Below, one piece after another: positions 30,791 through 46,229 of a stretch of DNA of 64,000 bases. Every line of letters starts with the position of its first letter. Positions within the stretch are counted from its first letter, which is position 1. The notes under the pieces were generated by a model. That model did not search any database. It had not been told where the DNA came from and saw only the letters and a list, made by a program, of their open reading frames with translations. The stretch comes from Octopus sinensis (taxonomy: Eukaryota), in NCBI RefSeq assembly GCF_006345805.1, contig NC_043007.1, positions 57,536,001-57,600,000 of the forward strand, read 5' to 3'. A program made the position numbers and the translations under genes.

Positions 30791-31190
30791 GTGTTTGAGT
30801 CAATGCATATCATCAGATTTGTGACGATGTGAGTTAGTGTGTGTGTATATGATGTAGATTGACGTAGCGTGATAGAATGGTTCAGAAGTTCGCTTCTCAA
30901 AACTCAGTTGCTGCCATGGGGCATTTTGGCTCAGTATATTTTAACCATAGCTTCGAGTCAATACAATCCTATTGAATGAAATTGGGGGTAAGGAAACAGT
31001 GCAGAATCCTGTCGGATGGAGACATTTTTCTTTAAATATAGATATATGTGTATATATACTTGGACTAATACACTTACGTATGTGCATATATGCATAAATG
31101 TAGGTATATGTATGTATATGTGCATGTATTTTTGTATGAGTGTATGTATGTGAATGTATATGTATATACCCAAACGGGGTAAATACATGC

Positions 31191-31782
<592 letters not shown>

Positions 31783-32448: not shown

Positions 32449-34310
32449 CAGTAGTTTTATTTTTATAGCGTGCTTTCACTTCACTACCGAGCGCAGCTCT
32501 GTGTGCCTTGGGTATGTGCTGTGATTTGTTGTGATGCTCTGATGGTTATTGTATGGAAAGTGTTCTGCGTAGGATGTGTGCAGTGCCTAGTAGTGCAATT
32601 TTCTGTATGTTATATGTGTTTGTAAGTCCTGGTGTTTTTGTTATGTATTTGTCTGAATATTTTTTATCATGCCTAATGCACCTACTATGATAGGAATTGT
32701 TTCTGTTTTTAGATTCCACATTCTAGTTACCTCTATTTCCAGGTCTTTGTATTTTGAGAGTTTCTCCATTTCTTTTAGAGACACGTTGTCATCTGCCGGT
32801 ATTGATACATCAATTAGAAAGCATTTTTTTCTTCATGATCTCTGACAACTATATCTGGTCTGTTGGCCTTAATTTCTCTATCTGTGTGTATCGGCATATC
32901 CCAGAGTATGGTTGCTTTCTCGTTTTCTGTGACCTTTTCTGGTGTGTGCCTATACCATCTTTTTTCTTTGTTATTCCATAATGTTGGCATAGCTTCCAAT
33001 GTATGTAGGTTCCAACTCTGTCATGTCTGTGAATATATTCCTTCTTAGCCAGGACTGGGCAGCTAGAGATAATATGATTTATTGTTTCTTCTCCATCTCC
33101 ACATATTCTGCAGTTACTTGTAATATTTCTTTTCATTACATGTTTTTGGTAATTTCTGGTGGGGAGGCTTTGGTCTTGTGCTGCAATTAAAAATCCCTCT
33201 GCCTCTGCTTTGAGTCCTGAGCTTCTCAACCATTGCTGGGATTTTTCTTTGTCTATTTCTTTTGCGTTTAGTTTAGTCCAGTATTTACCATGAAGGGGCT
33301 TATCTTGCCATCGTTCTATTTTTAGTTTGGATTTCATTTGTTTTATAGCTTTTGTTGTTTCTTCATCTTCATCTTCTTCTTCTTAATATTTATTAGGTGG
33401 TATGATTTCTTGTTTTGTATTTGTCAGCTTCCTTAAATACTGAGAACAGTTTTTTGTTTTGCTCGTGTTTTGCCGCTATTTGTATCAGTTTTCCTTCCTT
33501 CTGAAGTAGATATTTTTGCAGTCCTATGGTGGTTATTTTATAGTAGTTTTCAAGCTGTATAAAGCCTCTACCACCTTCTATACGTTGTATATATAGTCTT
33601 TCTATGTCAGATTTTGGGTGATGCATCCTAGATCCTGTCATTATTTTCTTGTTTTCCTATCTATTTTGGTCAGTTCATTTCGTGTCCAGTTAAGGATATT
33701 GTAGCTGTAACTTATAACTGGGACAGCTAAAGTGTTAGTACCTATTATCTTGTTTTTAGCATTGAGCTCTGTTTTTAGTATTGATCTAACTCGTCTATAA
33801 TATTCTTTTTATTTTCTCTTTCATTTGTGTGTGTTGTGTCTTATCTAGTTCATGGATTCCTAAGTATTTGTAAGTTGGGCTTTGGTCTAATTCTTTTATT
33901 TCATTGGTTTTATCTAGTGTGATGTTGCTACTCTTAACTAGTTTTCCTCTTTTCATGGTTACTTTGGCGCATTTTTCTAATCCAAATTTCATATCTATTT
34001 CTTTGGTAAATCCATGAACTGTCTTTAATAGTGTTTCCAGCTGTTTGTCATTTGCAGCGTATAGTTTTAGGTCATCCATATATAAAAGGTGGCTGATCGT
34101 TTTGCCGTAACATTTATATCCGCATCCAGTTCTATTTAGTATATCAGATAGAGGTGACAGTGTCAAGCAGAAAAGGAGTGGAGAGAGCGTTTCTCCCTAG
34201 AATATTCCTCTTCTAATGGGGATGTCTTTTGTTTGGAGGTGTAGGACTGTTTGCCATTTATTCATAGAGTGCTCTATGAATTTTATGATTGTTGGTGCTA
34301 CTTTGTTAAT
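32449..34310 (-). mobile_element. 5'-truncated R4/Dong-clade LINE, second copy, frameshifted
   Basis: HLLYMDDLKLYA, CRICGDGEETINHIISSC, RHDRVG and ILWDMPIHTDREIKANRPDIVV. Closely similar to 23161-25150. Confidence 0.92.
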
Positions 34311-34384
34311 TTACACACGCAAATTCACAGGTAAAATATGTATTTAAAAAATTAATAAATAAATTAATTCATGAATGGATGTTG

Positions 34385-34775
34385 TTTTCACAGCGATAAT
34401 GCTCTTCTCAGTACATGAGCCGTTCCAGTTAACACGATTTTTGCACTTCCTGTAGGGATGGTAAGCCTGGTATCATTTTCAAATAGGTTTCGGTACCTTT
34501 TTTAATCATTCCTAGAGCTCCTACAATCACTGGTACTGTATTCGCCTTGGGATGCCACATTTTTTCAATTTCTATTAGCAAGTCTTTATATTTACTGATC
34601 TTGTCAAATTCTTTCGCCGCTATATTGTGATCGCAAGGAATACTCATGTCAGTTAATAAACACGCCTTTTTTGTCTGATCTTTTATCCAGTTTATTAGCT
34701 TTTATAGTTTTGTCGGCATGTACGGGGAAGTCCCATAGAATCGACACACATTTTATCCCTCAGTCATAGCTTCAG
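34385..34775 (-). pseudogene. R4/Dong-type RLE C-terminal fragment (different subfamily)
   Basis: DMSIPCDHNIAAKEFDKISKYKDLLIEIEKMW...VPVIVGALG...GTAHVLRRALS. Confidence 0.85.
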
Positions 34776-36335: not shown

Positions 36336-36729
36336 TAATTCTTTCAAATTTAATTTGGAAAGGAAGATGAGGGTGGAAGAGAGAAGTGCTGCCTCCCAGT
36401 ACATTTTCTAAAAGGTGGATGAACGAAGCAAAAATGGTACGTGTAAGTGAATCTACTCTTATAATGCGCCTGTAGGCTAGTGTATTTGAGAAGGTTGTTC
36501 TTCCCAGAAACCCTCGAAGCGTCGAGTGATTCAGGATTGGTGGGGTACCTGAGCCAACTCCAGGTGGTTACCTTCCACCCCTATTGGGGAACTTTCATTA
36601 TTATATTCTTTTGTTACACGATTGTGTAATCGTTGTTTCTGTGTAAAATCCCCACTGCCCATGTCTAATGTATCGTCCCTATATGTCGGCCCTAGTGAAA
36701 TAATAATGATGACGATGATGATGATGATG

Positions 36730-36802
<73 letters not shown>

Positions 36803-36821
36803 TGATGATGATAATAATAAT

Positions 36822-37065
36822 AGTATCTTTAGTATCCTAGTTGTCTTTAATAACTTTGTTCTCTGGAGCTGTGCTAAACTGGGTTTTATGCCCATTTCCT
36901 CTATCCATCTGTAGAGATATTTAGGGATAGTTCCCAATGCACCTATACTTACTGGGATACATTTTACCCCCATTTTCCATAGCCTCTGTAATTCAATGGC
37001 CAGGTCCTGGTACTTTGCTATTCTTTCTATACCTCTCATATTAATTTTTTCATCATTTGGGACCT
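36822..37065 (-). pseudogene. RLE-LINE C-terminal fragment (third subfamily)
   Basis: KYQDLAIELQRLWK...CIPVSIGALGTIPK...LQRTKLLKTTRIL, ending at the (AAT)/(GAT) tract. Confidence 0.8.
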
Positions 37066-37260
37066 CTTTAGCTTTTGAGTTTCTGTGTATATTTATCCCT
37101 TCCCCGAAAGATGAACAATTACCTCCCCTTTCCCCAATAATAACGATCACCAATTACCTCCCCTTAGATTTTTCTACTTGTTTAATCATTAATTCATGAA
37201 CTCCGCACATAAAATGAACTAAAATCTTCTTAAGTAAATACGAAATTATAATAATTTCAA

Positions 37261-37293
37261 TGTCATGATTAGCGAAAGCGAAACCGGTCGACA
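37261..37293 (+). ncRNA. Minimal type I hammerhead ribozyme motif, A3-U8 core variant
   Basis: tgtc-ATGATTA-GC-gaaa-GC-GAA-ACCGGT-C-gaca. Stem I tgtc/gaca, 2-bp stem II with GAAA tetraloop, palindromic stem III, GUC cleavage triplet. Confidence 0.75.
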
Positions 37294-37378
37294 AACACTA
37301 TATAAAATATATTGAAAAATATATCAAAACTATATAACGTGGGTGCATTTTTATTTTATTTTATTTATATATATACAT

Positions 37379-39621: not shown

Positions 39622-41312
39622 TATAATAAAAAATAGATACAGTTAAGTTAGCACCAAGTCCATCCTTACAAGATCGAAATAACTATGAGTTAAGAATGCT
39701 GACCACTAGGTAAAGAAAGTATAGATTAATTCGATTGGCTATTGGTTTGAAATTTAAATCACAAAAGAAAATTATACGGTTGGTTAGTCAGGGAACGCCA
39801 ATATTCACACACGCATCTACAGATCAATCGCACATACACACATAGTAATATGTATATGCATACACTTATACACATACATAATTACAAGCAACAACTAGCA
39901 CATAGATAAACAAAGGGAAGCAACTATGCTACAATTTAGTCCTTCAAAATTATAATTGTGCCTCAATAATAAAAGAAGAACCATTCATGCATTCCATAAA
40001 ATATTTAATTTAGATATAAATATATTTTTAAATATCAATTGTTACTAAGTCAGATACTTATTTCATGGGTAACTTAAAATTTAAACACCGGTTTGTTGCA
40101 GAGTAAACATACGGTTGTTAGATTTATCGTAAGTTTGTTATGGTTTTAAGTACGCTAAATTATAAATATAAAATATAAAAATATATTAATTTAAATATTA
40201 TAAATAAGTCACTTATTAACTTAATAAATATAGTGCCATAATAACCATTTAAGGCATTAAAGAATAGAGGGGAAGTATTAATGTAAACGCTTATGAGAGC
40301 ATCACAAAAATTTTTTAAATAAATTTTATATTATAAAGACTTAAGATGAAAAGAGATAATAAATAAGAAGGAATAAATACGGTTATACACATAATAATTA
40401 CAAACCGTATATATGTATTCATATATTATTAAAATTAAATAAAAATAAATGATAGATATGTATGTATAAATAAAACTACCCCAGTATAAGTAAATAAGTA
40501 AAAAATAAATAGGTAGCAAATTAGATGACTTGATATGTATGTAAACATCTACACTTAAATAGGCAATAAATAAATAAATAGAAGACTAGATGCAAAAATT
40601 GATAATATTACAATAAAATGGAAATAATAAAAATAATAAATAGAGTGAATATATATGTTATATTGTTGAAAGTAAATATGTATGGAAGGATAGTTTAAAG
40701 TACAGATCCAGAAGACTATAGATATAAACTAAATATATGAGGCTGGTAATAATTATAAAGCATAATGCATGTAAATGAGAAAATGAAAAAAATGAAAAAG
40801 GTTTATCAGTGAATAGCATAAGATACAAATTAAGGTGAGTACAAAAAGACCAAATATACAATAAAAACCTTCCAAATAAACACATACAAAAAACCTATAA
40901 TCTCAACCTAAACCCACCAAACTCACAAAAGGCTCTCATATATTACATATTATACAATATCATTACATTATCCAGAGCTAGGTATCTACCCAAGATATAT
41001 ATATATACTATGCAATATACTATGCAATATTGGAAAACTTCAAAAATCACACATTACAAGGCAAGTACCAAAATGAATATGTTATTTTATGTCATATTGC
41101 ATTTCTCTTAAAAAAAACAAACAAAAACCCACATACAAAAAACAAGAAACCAATAATACTAGACACATCCATTAATTATTATACAAATGTAGCTATAAAA
41201 ATTATAAAATTATAAAATATATAAATTGTATACTTTAGAATTATAGAAGACCACAGGTATATTTAGTTAAAGAAGGGAGTTAAAAAATTAATAATAGTGG
41301 AAGTGCTAAGTT

Positions 41313-42533
41313 CTATTTGAATCTAGAAAAGGTGAACGGTAGCCTATGAATACAAAAGAAGTTTTTTTCATTAATGTTGTTAATAATTTGCCGACCCGCT
41401 TTAATAATGAAGAAAATTTCATTAATACATAGAGAGCATTTTTTATTTTTTCCATTATACACAGGTGCTGAAGTTAGTATTTTCCAGTTTAATCTAAAAT
41501 CTAAGTTCTTATTTTTAAGCTCCCAAATGTATGCACTTAGCCCTGTAGAGTACATTCTATTTTTATTCCTAAAAGTATATCTGTGATAATTCCATCTTTG
41601 TTTTATGCTATTCATAGTTGCCCCGATATACACCCTACTACTCAATTGTGTATCTACAGTGCATTGGTAAACTACCTCCTTCCGGAGGCATTGATTACCA
41701 AATACACATTTATTTTTATTTCTGAAATTACAAAGATTAACAGAATGAGGAAATCTAAAATTGGACAACACCCCTATACTACTATTCACATTATAAGTGT
41801 TACAATTGTTATCATCATCCAAACCCAAAATCAACGAATGAGTTAATTTCACATTATCGGCTATATTCCTATCACTAGTACTAGTATTGGTATTAGTAGT
41901 ATGATCTATTTCATTTATATTATCTCTGACAGGTATGGTGCACTCATTATTAGTAAGGAGGTTGTTCCCATTTGTTCCAAGAAAGTTTCTATTCCTATTA
42001 TTAATGAAGAGGGGCAAGTTTACCTGGTCTAAATTCAATTTTCTATCCTTATAGAAGTGATCCAGTTTCTTGTTATTAAAAGAGGAGATAATGGTGGCTA
42101 GATTATGAGTAATGCTATATCCCACTCTAACAGTACCGTTGTTAATTAAAGGACTAAATTTATTCTTATCCTTACCAAAATGCCTAAAAATAACATTATG
42201 CAAAGCTCTCACTATGTTTGTTTTAATCTGCATTGCATATGGGATAATCAACCAAAGAGTATCCTTATCAGAATTAGGATTGCCTATAGAATTAATGTTA
42301 TTTGTAAAAATCCTATTCGTAGACCAACTCATAGGATTACTATTCTTACCATTGTCATTGTTATATTTATCTATATCAATATTACCATGGTTATTGCGCA
42401 AGTAAACTTTACCATTATCATGTCTACCATAAGTTTTAATTCGTATATTATTATTAATATTCCTACTATAACCCGTATGTTTAGATCTATTTGAGCTACC
42501 GTTCACCTTTCCAAGGTTAACATCACTTCTACA
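41313..42533 (-). CDS. PLE ORF C-terminal part: Asn-rich linker plus GIY-YIG endonuclease
   Basis: CNFRNKNKCVFGNQCL...VVYQC...VYIGAT...KQRWNYH...STGLSAYIWELK...CSLCINE...CIH is a Naiad-type GIY-YIG with Cys/His motifs. The frame is open from ~42533 and out of frame with the RT by one base. Confidence 0.88.
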   Translation of the reverse strand, partial: CRSDVNLGKVNGSSNRSKHTGYSRNINNNIRIKTYGRHDNGKVYLRNNHGNIDIDKYNNDNGKNSNPMSWSTNRIFTNNINSIGNPNSDKDTLWLIIPYAMQIKTNIVRALHNVIFRHFGKDKNKFSPLINNGTVRVGYSITHNLATIISSFNNKKLDHFYKDRKLNLDQVNLPLFINNRNRNFLGTNGNNLLTNNECTIPVRDNINEIDHTTNTNTSTSDRNIADNVKLTHSLILGLDDDNNCNTYNVNSSIGVLSNFRFPHSVNLCNFRNKNKCVFGNQCLRKEVVYQCTVDTQLSSRVYIGATMNSIKQRWNYHRYTFRNKNRMYSTGLSAYIWELKNKNLDFRLNWKILTSAPVYNGKNKKCSLCINEIFFIIKAGRQIINNINEKNFFCIHRLPFTFSRFK

Positions 42534-44153
42534 TTATTATAGGTGTTATCATATATTCCATTTTTACAATTCTTATGTATATTGTTGATTATCCTAAATC
42601 TATTTGTGTTGTTCCTGATAGTTCTACCTCCATTAGGGGGGTTCCCCTTAGGTATAAACCAAATCTTACTTTTATATCCTGCCTTAAGCAATGCTGCATT
42701 GTATCTATCACAGTGTTTGTTAAAAATTTCCTCGTTTGAGGATAAACTAGAAATTCTCTGACTAATGCTCCTCACTAGTGCATTTTTAATTTGAGGGGGG
42801 TGATTACTTGAACGGTTAATGTATATTAGGTTAGAATTAGGTTTAATATAGGGTTCATGTAAACCATTAGTAATATTACAATTAACATCTAAATAATTAG
42901 CAGAATAATTTTCACTTTCAATGATAATGGATAGGCCGAAGCTTTTAAAAAATTTATTTATTCTTTTTTTCAGAAGATCTAATCTCCTATTTGATGTATT
43001 CCTAACACAAAATAAGGCGTCATCCCTGTATAATCCACCTTTTAATTCAGGGAATTCCCTACTAAAGTTATCTAATAGATACATCCCAACTAGATCAGTC
43101 ACCTCCGCTGAGTCCGGCGATCCCATTGTGATATCGAACAAGTTGGGTGTGTCCTTTCTAGCCCAAAGTTTATTATCAAACTCTATTAAAGTTTTCCTGG
43201 CTGTTAGTATAACCTTAATCTCCCCCATACTTAATTTAGTGTGTTTTCTAGCAAAAATTAAGGACTTATTTAATATAATAGGGTTAATGGAAGTGTAATA
43301 ATTCTGTATATCGAATTGTATAAATTTATTTCTATTATAGCTAAAGTTGTTACTGTCACAGACCTTAATGGCAGAAAACCAATCCAAAGCACCCTGAGTA
43401 TTCTTCCAAAGGTTTAGTTTGATTTTATTGCGGATGGTGGGTAGGTATTTATCCAGAATGAGTTTACTTAGTCTGCCTAAGTCAGATTTAGTGGGGCAAA
43501 TTAATCTGACCTGTGTGTTTCCAAGAAAATTCTCTTTATGATCCTTTAGTGTAATTCTCGGTCTAGATGGGGTGTAGGGTTCTGTTTTTTCTTCTAGGTA
43601 GTAGTCAAATATGATTTCTCTGATCTCCAGGTTCAGTTTTCTAAGTGTACTAGAAGGTACTACTTTGTATTTCTTGGTTATTTCCTTGTGTAGAAGATCA
43701 TGATATGCAGTAATGTCAATGTTGTAGATGTTGTTGGTTTTGTCAGAATGTGTTAGAATGCCGCTCTTACCTTTGAGAGTTCTAATTAAGTCTTTCAATT
43801 CTCTTTGGTGCTGGTTATATCTTAAAGGATGATTTCTAAATTTTATGTTTTTTACAGTCTCCCATAGTTCTTGTTCAAAATTGTCTAGATGTATATTTGG
43901 TGGAGGAGACTTCCTAGATTTAAATGTAGTGCCTGTTAGTTTTAATATTTCTTCATAGGTGCTTCCAATTCTATTACGGATCGTTTCCTCAGTGTGTTGT
44001 TGTTTATTTTATTATTATAGTTCTCATGGTGGAAATCCTCCATCTGATCCTGTGGATGAATTCATTCATTCTATAAATTAGTTCTTTAGTGTAATGGTCT
44101 TTGGTAGGGATAGGTACATCCTTCATTGATGAATTGATCAGTATTTTCTCCAT
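42503..44153 (-). CDS. PLE ORF N-terminal part and reverse transcriptase (frameshift near 44010-44035)
   Basis: ATG at 44153 gives MEKILINSSMKDVPIP...FIHRIRWR. The main frame is open from ~44008: FKSRKSPP...NIKFR...SDKTNNIY...TLKDHKENF...RLICP...QFDIQNYYTSI...FDITMGSPDSAEVTDLVG...GLYRDDAL...NYLDV...SNHPP. Confidence 0.92.
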
Positions 44154-44710: not shown

Positions 44711-46229
44711 TTAAAACCTGTGGGTTTTTGTTTGTATTTTAAGAGAATTGCAATATGACATAAAATAACATATTCATTTTGGTACTTGCCTTGTAATGTG
44801 TGATTTTTGAAGTTTTCCAATATTGCATAGTATATTGCATAGTATATATATATATCTTGGGTAGATACCTAGCTCTGGATAATGTAATGATATTGTATAA
44901 TATGTAATATATGAGAGCCTTTTGTGAGTTTGGTGGGTTTAGGTTGAGATTATAGGTTTTTTTGTATGTGTTTATGGTCTTTTTGTACTCACCTTAATTT
45001 GTATCTTATGCTATTCACTGATAAACCTTTTTCATTTTTTTCATTTTCTCATTTACATGCATTATGCTTTATAATTATTACCAGCCTCATATATTTAGTT
45101 TATATCTATAGTCTTCTGGATCTGTACTTTAAACTATCCTTCCATACATATTTACTTTCAACAATATAACATATATATTCACTCTACTTATTATTTTTAT
45201 TTTTTTATTTATTTTCCATTTTATTGTAATATTATCAATTTTTGCATCTAGTCTTCTATTTATTTATTTATTTGCCTATTTAAGTGTAGATGTTTACATA
45301 CATATCAAGTCATCTAATTTGCTACCTATTTATTTTTTACTTATTTACTTATACTGGGGTAGTTTTATACATACATATCTATCATTTATTTTTATTTAAT
45401 TTTTAATAATATATGAATACATATATACTGGTTTGTACTTATAATTATGTGTATAACCGTATTTATTCCTTCTTATTTATTTTATCTCTTTTCATCTTAA
45501 GTCTTTATAATATAAAATTTATTTTTATTTAAAAATTTTTGTGATGCTCTCATAAGCGTTTACATTAATACTTCCCCTTCTATTCTTTAATGCCTTAACT
45601 GGTATATTATGGCACTATATTTATTAAGTTAATAAGTGACTTATTTATAATATTTAAATTAATATATATTTTATATTTATATTTTATAATTTAGCGTACT
45701 TAAAACCATAACAAACTTACGATAAATCTAACAACCGTATGTTTACTCTGCAACAAACCGTGTTATAAATTTTAAGTTACCCATGAATAAGTATCTGACT
45801 TAGTAACATATTGATATTTAAAAATATATTTATATCTAAATTAAATATTTTATGGAATGCATGAATGGTTCTTCTTTTATTATTGAGGCACAATATAATT
45901 TTGAAGGACTAAATTGTAGCATAGTTGCTTCCCTTTTTGTTTATCTATGTGCTAGTTGTTGCTTGTAATTATGTATGTGTATAAGTGTATGCATATACAT
46001 ATTACTATGTGTGTATGTGCGATTGATCTGTAGATGCGTGTGTGAATATTGGCGTTCCCTGACTAACCAACCGTATAATTTTCTTTTGTGATTTAAATTT
46101 CAAACCAATAGCCAATCGAATTAATCTATACTTTCTTTACCTAGTGGTCAGCATTTCTTAACTCATAGTTATTTCGATCTTGTAAGGATGGACTTGGTGC
46201 TAACTTAACTGTATCTATTTTTTATTATA

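Follow-up and report, generated by a model that had tools for sequence, protein, structure and literature searches.

Can a hammerhead ribozyme in which both members of the tertiary 3-8 pair have been exchanged, A3-U8 for C3-G8, be a natural functional variant, and is the exchange a family trait or the accident of one copy? The question is raised by a hammerhead-like motif of 33 nt on the forward strand, at positions 37261-37293 of the 64,000-nucleotide stretch of DNA analysed here (the window). Read directly from the sequence, the motif is exactly as the original prediction described it, with a core AUGAUUA and all other elements canonical. These elements are:

37261..37264 (+): 5' strand of stem I, UGUC, pairing with 37290-37293
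37265..37271 (+): core A3-U4-G5-A6-U7-U8-A9 (A3 at 37265, U8 at 37270, A9 at 37271), with A3 and U8 in place of C3 and G8
37272..37279 (+): stem II, 2 bp (GC/GC), with a GAAA loop, by direct reading
37280..37282 (+): core G12-A13-A14, by direct reading
37283..37288 (+): palindrome ACCGGU, from A15.1 to U16.1, through which two copies are predicted to join in a stem III of 6 bp
37289 (+): C17, with predicted cleavage 3' of this base
37290..37293 (+): 3' strand of stem I, GACA, pairing with 37261-37264

The role of C17 as cleavage position follows from hammerhead numbering. At up to three mismatches the window holds one match to the motif, against 0.08 expected in 64 kb. The core typical of the minimal type I hammerheads of Penelope-like elements (PLEs), namely U4-G5-A6-N7, A9, G12-A13-A14, A15.1-U16.1 and H17, is present, and its columns are invariant in our alignment of related motifs. 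The literal C3 and G8 of the CUGANGA descriptor are replaced by A3 and U8, which are Watson-Crick complementary, and for lack of the literal pair the motif is filed as a variant. Searches based on CUGANGA would miss it, as had been foreseen; the Rfam hammerhead families also gave no match in the window, either at the gathering score or at E-values up to 10.

The folding energy of the monomer is at the level of shuffled sequences (z = 0.63), as expected of a 2-bp stem II, and in the predicted monomer fold A3-U4 is mispaired with G16.2-U16.1. When two window copies were co-folded, the double hammerhead was the minimum-energy structure, at -14.9 kcal/mol. Among the 13 motifs co-folded in this way, the same held for the window motif and four others, while in the remaining eight the double hammerhead lay 1.4-4.6 kcal/mol above the minimum-energy dimer.

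The surroundings of the motif had been predicted to resemble a PLE 3' end extending over ~37150-37365. The assignment was borne out, since blastn identifies a remnant of a pLTR; its extent is wider than proposed:

about 37066..37375 (+): 5'-truncated PLE remnant (~310 bp), end of the 3' UTR / pLTR, 66-83% identical to family loci by blastn

The remnant passes into a (TA)n/(CA)n microsatellite. This copy retains neither RT nor endonuclease sequence, as tblastn of the family proteins against the window gave no match, and no second copy of the motif that might act as a partner in cis lies within the 64 kb; the next family copy (locus L366) is ~40 kb away on the opposite strand. The window copy is thus a lone decayed insertion and probably inert itself.

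The nature of the element becomes visible in longer relatives, in which an RT, followed by a Cys linker and a GIY-YIG endonuclease, lies upstream of the same motif. The motif follows closely on the GIY-YIG frame, at about 800-950 nt downstream of the RT segment. Pfam matches to RVT_1 and GIY-YIG were obtained in L142, L144 and L140, and decayed family fragments gave nothing real in Pfam. Moreover, inverted 5' copies occur at L027-L029 and the longer copies end in (TA)n. Judged by these sequence features, the family is an EN+ Penelope-like element. A CX2-5CxxC linker between RT and endonuclease was read in the family frames; as described for Neptune and Nematis by Craig et al. 2021 (10.1101/2021.04.23.441226), it fits one of these two clades, an assignment that follows the motif definition. 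The RT, the Cys linker, the GIY-YIG domain with its Cys/His motif, the pLTRs, the inverted 5' copies and the (TA)n targets are likewise those of the Neptune/Nematis EN+ PLEs in that description. The nearest named protein relatives come from Argonauta hians (55-57%) and from bivalves, which makes an octopod cephalopod the likely host.

An intact young element was found at L140 (G000:C2:146927500-146934000, minus strand), the core of which is U3-A8. Its pLTRs form a 308-bp direct repeat, 100% alike and about 4.0 kb apart, and both contain the motif. It has two overlapping open frames of 495 codons (ORF1, upstream) and 837 codons, an arrangement that suggests a frameshifted ORF1 and that differs, by this separate upstream frame, from the Neptune/Nematis elements as described (10.1101/2021.04.23.441226). 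ORF1 gave no Pfam match. No intact A3-U8 element was found in the genome, the intact relative L140 being U-A, nor an A3-U8 family as young as L140: the closest pairs of A3-U8 copies are 92-98% alike, against 100% for the pLTRs of L140.

The A3-U8 core is the norm of the window family. A 25-mer of the motif has 67 exact copies in the source genome (G000) and none for the reversed control. When the scaffold was kept exact and positions 3, 7 and 8 were left free, 157 copies were recovered, with A3 in 144 of them. The 13 others carry C (6), G (4) or U (3) at position 3; twelve of these keep U8 and one is G3-G8. Among the first 100 copies listed, U8 is present in 94. At position 7 the subfamilies have either U or A, and C3-G8 occurs in none of the 157 exact-scaffold copies. 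A sample drawn independently of the motif gave the same picture. Here, the best 30 loci were taken for 581 bp of upstream DNA, of which 27 reached the motif and could be aligned; leaving out the query, A-U was found in 24 of 26, A-G in one and G-C in one badly decayed copy. Thus, the genome search for many copies with both changes came out as the original prediction hoped, and the window copy is no singleton, its family norm being A3-U8 and not C3-G8. A younger subfamily of the window family has 437 exact copies (control, 0). Among inserted copies CpG decay is seen, and conservation of the motif (0.879) is close to that of its flanks (0.890 and 0.885); this is neutral ageing after insertion. 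At one locus of the younger subfamily, L324-L326 (G000:C2:15873154-15874267), a tandem series of three near-identical A3-U8 motifs is spaced at 544 bp on the same strand and forms a natural substrate for dimer folding in cis.

The same core was found in sister families. When A3-U8 was searched for together with an extended stem II, 245 matches were obtained in the genome against 52 for the reversed control. They brought out two more families: a second, in which stem I is entirely different (6 bp), stem II is G-U..A-C and position 17 is A, and a third. The RT proteins of the A3-U8 families are 62-65% alike and there is hardly any alignment between their pLTRs; stems I and II differ from one family to another by compensatory changes. 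In an alignment of 18 rows, 93.7% of the cells are paired and 45 cells are changed on both sides, values as high being reached in 0 of 500 shuffles; it should be noted that these rows were hand-picked and partly chosen by pattern, so that the alignment illustrates rather than tests covariation, and that one row, L183, is out of register 3' of position 9. In these rows each of the four stem I pairs differs between families on both strands, G10.1-C11.1 is kept in 17 of 18, and the second stem II pair is C-G or U-A. The 3-8 pair itself is A-U in nine rows and C-G, G-C and U-A in three each. G5, A6, A9, G12, A13, A14 and A15.1-U16.1 do not vary, and at the level of families G is absent from position 17.

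Selecting 50 loci by the RT protein alone, we obtained a core in 35 and none in 15. The cores were A-U (25), U-A (6), G-C (1) and unpaired (3), the latter comprising two A-A, one of them probably a false match, and one A-C. The G-C motifs have stem I, an upstream hairpin and protein (up to 83%) in common with the second A-U family. One subfamily, 2b (L121, L124, L134-L136, L139, L144-L146, L158 and L159), carries the A3-U8 core ~800 nt downstream of the RT segment. In its motifs G12 is followed by an additional nucleotide, which may be U, C, G or A; the palindromic stem III is longer and stem II is unusually variable. Often the subfamily has U17 beside A3; both U17 and the extra base are possibly harmful. 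The idea that A3 families avoid U17 was rejected on account of this subfamily.

We counted the forms of the 3-8 pair over the source genome with one pattern shape, each against its reversed control. This pattern gave 371 matches for C-G (control, 40), 8051 for U-A (63) and 118 for G-C (18); for A-U the corresponding counts are the 245 (52) obtained with the longer stem II and the 437 (0) of the one subfamily. Among mismatches, counted for the purine-purine and pyrimidine-pyrimidine combinations, the four purine-purine ones together gave 287 (207) and the four pyrimidine-pyrimidine ones 195 (116). Within the first 100 matches listed for each of these, most are single changes of large families or unrelated repeats. 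The exception is a family resembling a pLTR, in which the core is U3.U8 and stem II is poor. It makes up 15 of the first 100 pyrimidine-pyrimidine matches listed; the five members examined (L352-L356) have no RT within 1.1 kb. It may be read either as a dead family or as an intermediate between U-A and A-U, and its existence indicates that a family can spread without the 3-8 pair. U3-A8 is the dominant minimal hammerhead core of the genome and occurs in several stem II families that look unrelated (e.g., L328-L330, L357-L360 and L140). Natural G3-C8 subfamilies (L287-L296 and L337-L344) number at least 100 copies above control, take several stem II forms and are nested in an A3-U8 family. All four Watson-Crick pairs at 3-8 are therefore found at family level in one genome. 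Any Watson-Crick pair at this place is reportedly tolerated in some backgrounds, according to what Przybilski and Hammann are said to have found in 2007.

A repeat of ~360 bp with high identity (L064, L068, L075, L079-L082 and L331) also carries hammerheads, either C3-G8 or U3-A8, arrayed both in tandem and inverted. It has no RT nearby and is retrozyme-like.

The order of the changes was read from an RT tree of 22 rows, chosen from 37 by leaving out long or partial ones and rooted on five C-G outgroups. Two U-A families branch first (99/97), then the A-U clade (96/90), and G-C is nested in the second family of the A-U clade (93/84); at L138 the core is G-C, and the U-A motif at L153 belongs to a neighbouring insertion. 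The tree requires at least three changes of the 3-8 pair. By the AU test, with groups named after earlier trees had been seen, monophyly is rejected for U-A (p 0.011) and for A-U alone (p 0.0003); for G-C it is neither established nor rejected. From this branching we infer that the lineage passed from C-G to U-A, then to A-U and on to G-C.

Outside the source genome, 127 loci of RT relatives in public metagenome and genome contigs were surveyed, a set that leaves out the nearest outside protein relatives (P0001-P0011). The motif was found at 42 of them: 33 are C-G, five U-A (three convincing) and four other weak or wobble forms, with no A-U or G-C among the 42. Viral contigs contained neither an RT relative nor an A3-U8 motif. 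Contigs of three other organisms aligned on an A-U copy had no other letter at position 3 or 8. On a G-C copy, the greater part of the depth in organisms C and D was A3/U8 and the remainder G/C, these being letters per position without phase. The presence of both sets of letters in other organisms implies that the 3-8 variants are not assembly errors and, as far as can be inferred, that they are older than the split of those species. Some PLE RT genes with hammerheads (L240-L286) lie in contigs filed as bacterial genomes and are probably host DNA in metagenome bins.

How do these motifs compare with those already described? PLE minimal type I hammerheads have low activity in vitro (Cervera and De la Pena 2014, PMC4209133), and the 56 representatives in Fig. 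S3 of that paper comprise 53 with C3, three with U3 and none with A3 or G3. The present motifs resemble them, as there described, in their pLTR site, short stem I, G10.1-C11.1 and palindromic stem III for dimer folding, and also in occurring mostly as single copies from truncated insertions and in inverted pairs. They differ from all of these, including the U3-A8 motif of Schistosoma mansoni Cercyon, in the A3-U8 core and in having G3-C8 sister families; moreover, stem II is only 2-3 bp and A9 is followed directly by G10.1. Natural U3-A8 hammerheads have been published (Perreault et al. 2011, PMC3088659, section 8; PMC4209133). The natural covariation of the 3-8 tertiary pair is common to both cases, although the examples given in that section by Perreault et al. 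are pyrimidine-3/purine-8 only, whereas here a purine stands at position 3. Small PLE variants reported by Lunse, Weinberg and Breaker (RNA Biol 14:1499), going by the title as cited in PMC6765202, appear alike in the reduced stem III, the dimer mechanism and the PLE association. By its sequence features, the A3-U8 motif conforms to the PLE minimal hammerheads, every testable feature being present except the literal C3-G8.

The same pair and the same rescue logic have been explored with laboratory mutants, unlike the natural forms found here. Among all double mutants of a type III hammerhead, only G-C rescues 3-8 and A3-U8 and the other doubles are low (Roberts et al. 2023, PMC9901934). The hammerhead of the anole PLE PAc cleaves only with protein, and G3-C8 partly rescues it (PMC11167929). 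The original prediction held that compensatory double changes can restore activity; in the parts of the literature consulted this is documented for G3-C8 (PMC9901934, PMC11167929) and U3-A8 (PMC3088659) and not for A3-U8. We found no natural A3-U8 or G3-C8 in the literature covered, which does not extend to Lunse et al. or to Przybilski and Hammann 2007, either of which could hold them; the portions consulted of PMC6765202, PMC6257768, PMC2837043 and 10.64898/2026.07.22.740005 added none.

Taken as a whole, the sequence evidence makes it rather probable that the motif is a family-wide A3-U8 minimal type I hammerhead which, in active elements, is likely dimer-folded and likely cuts the element RNA, probably with an element protein. 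Two copies of the motif, in a tandem transcript or in trans, would pair through ACCGGU to form stem III. A3 would then pair with U8 in the active fold, and this pair, like C3-G8, would hold the ribose of residue 8 in place for catalysis; the group by which this residue acts is the ribose 2'-OH, as stated for G8 (PMC2920678). Cleavage after position 17 would trim the precursor at the pLTR, probably aided by an element protein. The changes of the pair would have occurred in few master copies under selection, and inserted copies, such as that of the window, would decay neutrally. Function is inferred here from the family-level covariation of the 3-8 pair. The persistence of A3-U8 across families whose RTs are 62-65% alike, while the stems covary, argues for this mechanism. 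Several observations argue against it: the low values of non-G-C double mutants in the type III scan (PMC9901934), the weak in vitro cleavage of PLE hammerheads (PMC4209133), in vitro insertion without cleavage in anole (PMC11167929), the U3.U8 family, the U17 and extra base of subfamily 2b, the failure to find an A3-U8 family as young as L140, and the mispairing of A3-U4 in the monomer fold.

That the 3-8 pair is under selection in master copies is very probable. The fold, including this pair, might be selected as a structure (a dimerisation signal, a protein binding site or an organiser of the RT template) with cleavage negligible or irrelevant. All the covariation described here is also compatible with such a role, and it accords with the low rates in vitro (PMC4209133), with the low values of non-G-C swaps in another hammerhead (PMC9901934) and with the anole element, in which cleavage is dispensable for insertion in vitro and no RNA-seq ends were reported at the site (PMC11167929). 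We nevertheless regard a purely structural role as unlikely: the fixed G5, A6, A9, G12, A13, A14 and A15.1-U16.1 and the non-G position 17 follow the pattern of the catalytic core, and the 3-8 pair belongs to the cleavage-ready fold, having been seen only in the tertiary-stabilised, active structure (PMC3884650). The presence of A-U, U-A and G-C families in one genome thus likely reflects selection that keeps the pair, and the RNA is predicted to self-cleave still.

A3-U8 could also be a dead ribozyme, two chance changes having been fixed in one master of an element that does not need its hammerhead. Naiad PLEs are described as spreading without any hammerhead (Craig et al. 2021, 10.1101/2021.04.23.441226), the U3.U8 family exists, and in the window family the motif is kept no better than its flanks. 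Equal decay is, however, what one expects among inserted copies and says nothing on the masters. Between families the core stays while the pLTR flanks lose alignment and the stems covary, and two more changes, again paired, led from A-U to G-C. Persistence of the A3-U8 core over an RT divergence of about 35% largely refutes this reading, which we hold to be quite improbable. Least credible of all is selection of A3 for the sake of a start codon, AUG (A3-U4-G5), instead of for pairing with U8. In the anole element the reading frame is reported to start inside the hammerhead (PMC11167929), and the AUG of the window motif opens 16 codons; yet position 8 falls third in the following codon and need not track position 3, the corresponding triplet in sister families is UUG, GUG or CUG, and the first AUG of ORF1 in L140 lies about 237 nt behind position 3. 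A cleaving hammerhead with an exchanged 3-8 pair is the reading we prefer.

We see the balance as even on whether these are the first natural purine-3/pyrimidine-8 hammerheads, and whether one cephalopod PLE lineage would have walked through C-G, U-A, A-U and G-C, each cleavage-competent. If true, selection of PLE minimal hammerheads for catalysis would have direct evolutionary evidence behind it, and core descriptors would miss most hammerheads in such genomes. Since the 3-8 pair is formed only in the active fold, three paired replacements in a lineage are strong evidence of selection on that fold. The role of tiny animal PLE hammerheads as catalysts, weak in vitro and dispensable for insertion in the test tube, is the debated ground to which these data speak. 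Moreover, the lineage provides a natural four-way series (C-G, U-A, A-U and G-C) on nearly the same scaffold, which bears on the laboratory finding that A-U substitutes poorly. With the one pattern shape used, non-canonical cores outnumber C3-G8 more than 20-fold in the genome, so that ribozyme counts based on CUGANGA can be badly low.

The window contains further mobile elements. A second PLE-like element at 41313-44008 (-) combines a GIY-YIG-like frame with an RT-like one that carries a DKT motif, has repeats near 40840-41110 and 44740-44990, and resembles the Hydra clade by motif only; it gave no Pfam match and no hammerhead in the motif scan. Fragments of a non-LTR retrotransposon with (TAA)n tails lie at 36692-37065 (-), 32849-34701 (-) and 31140-31643 (+). 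An RVT_1 match at 33795-34193 falls within them, and one fragment adjoins the PLE remnant.
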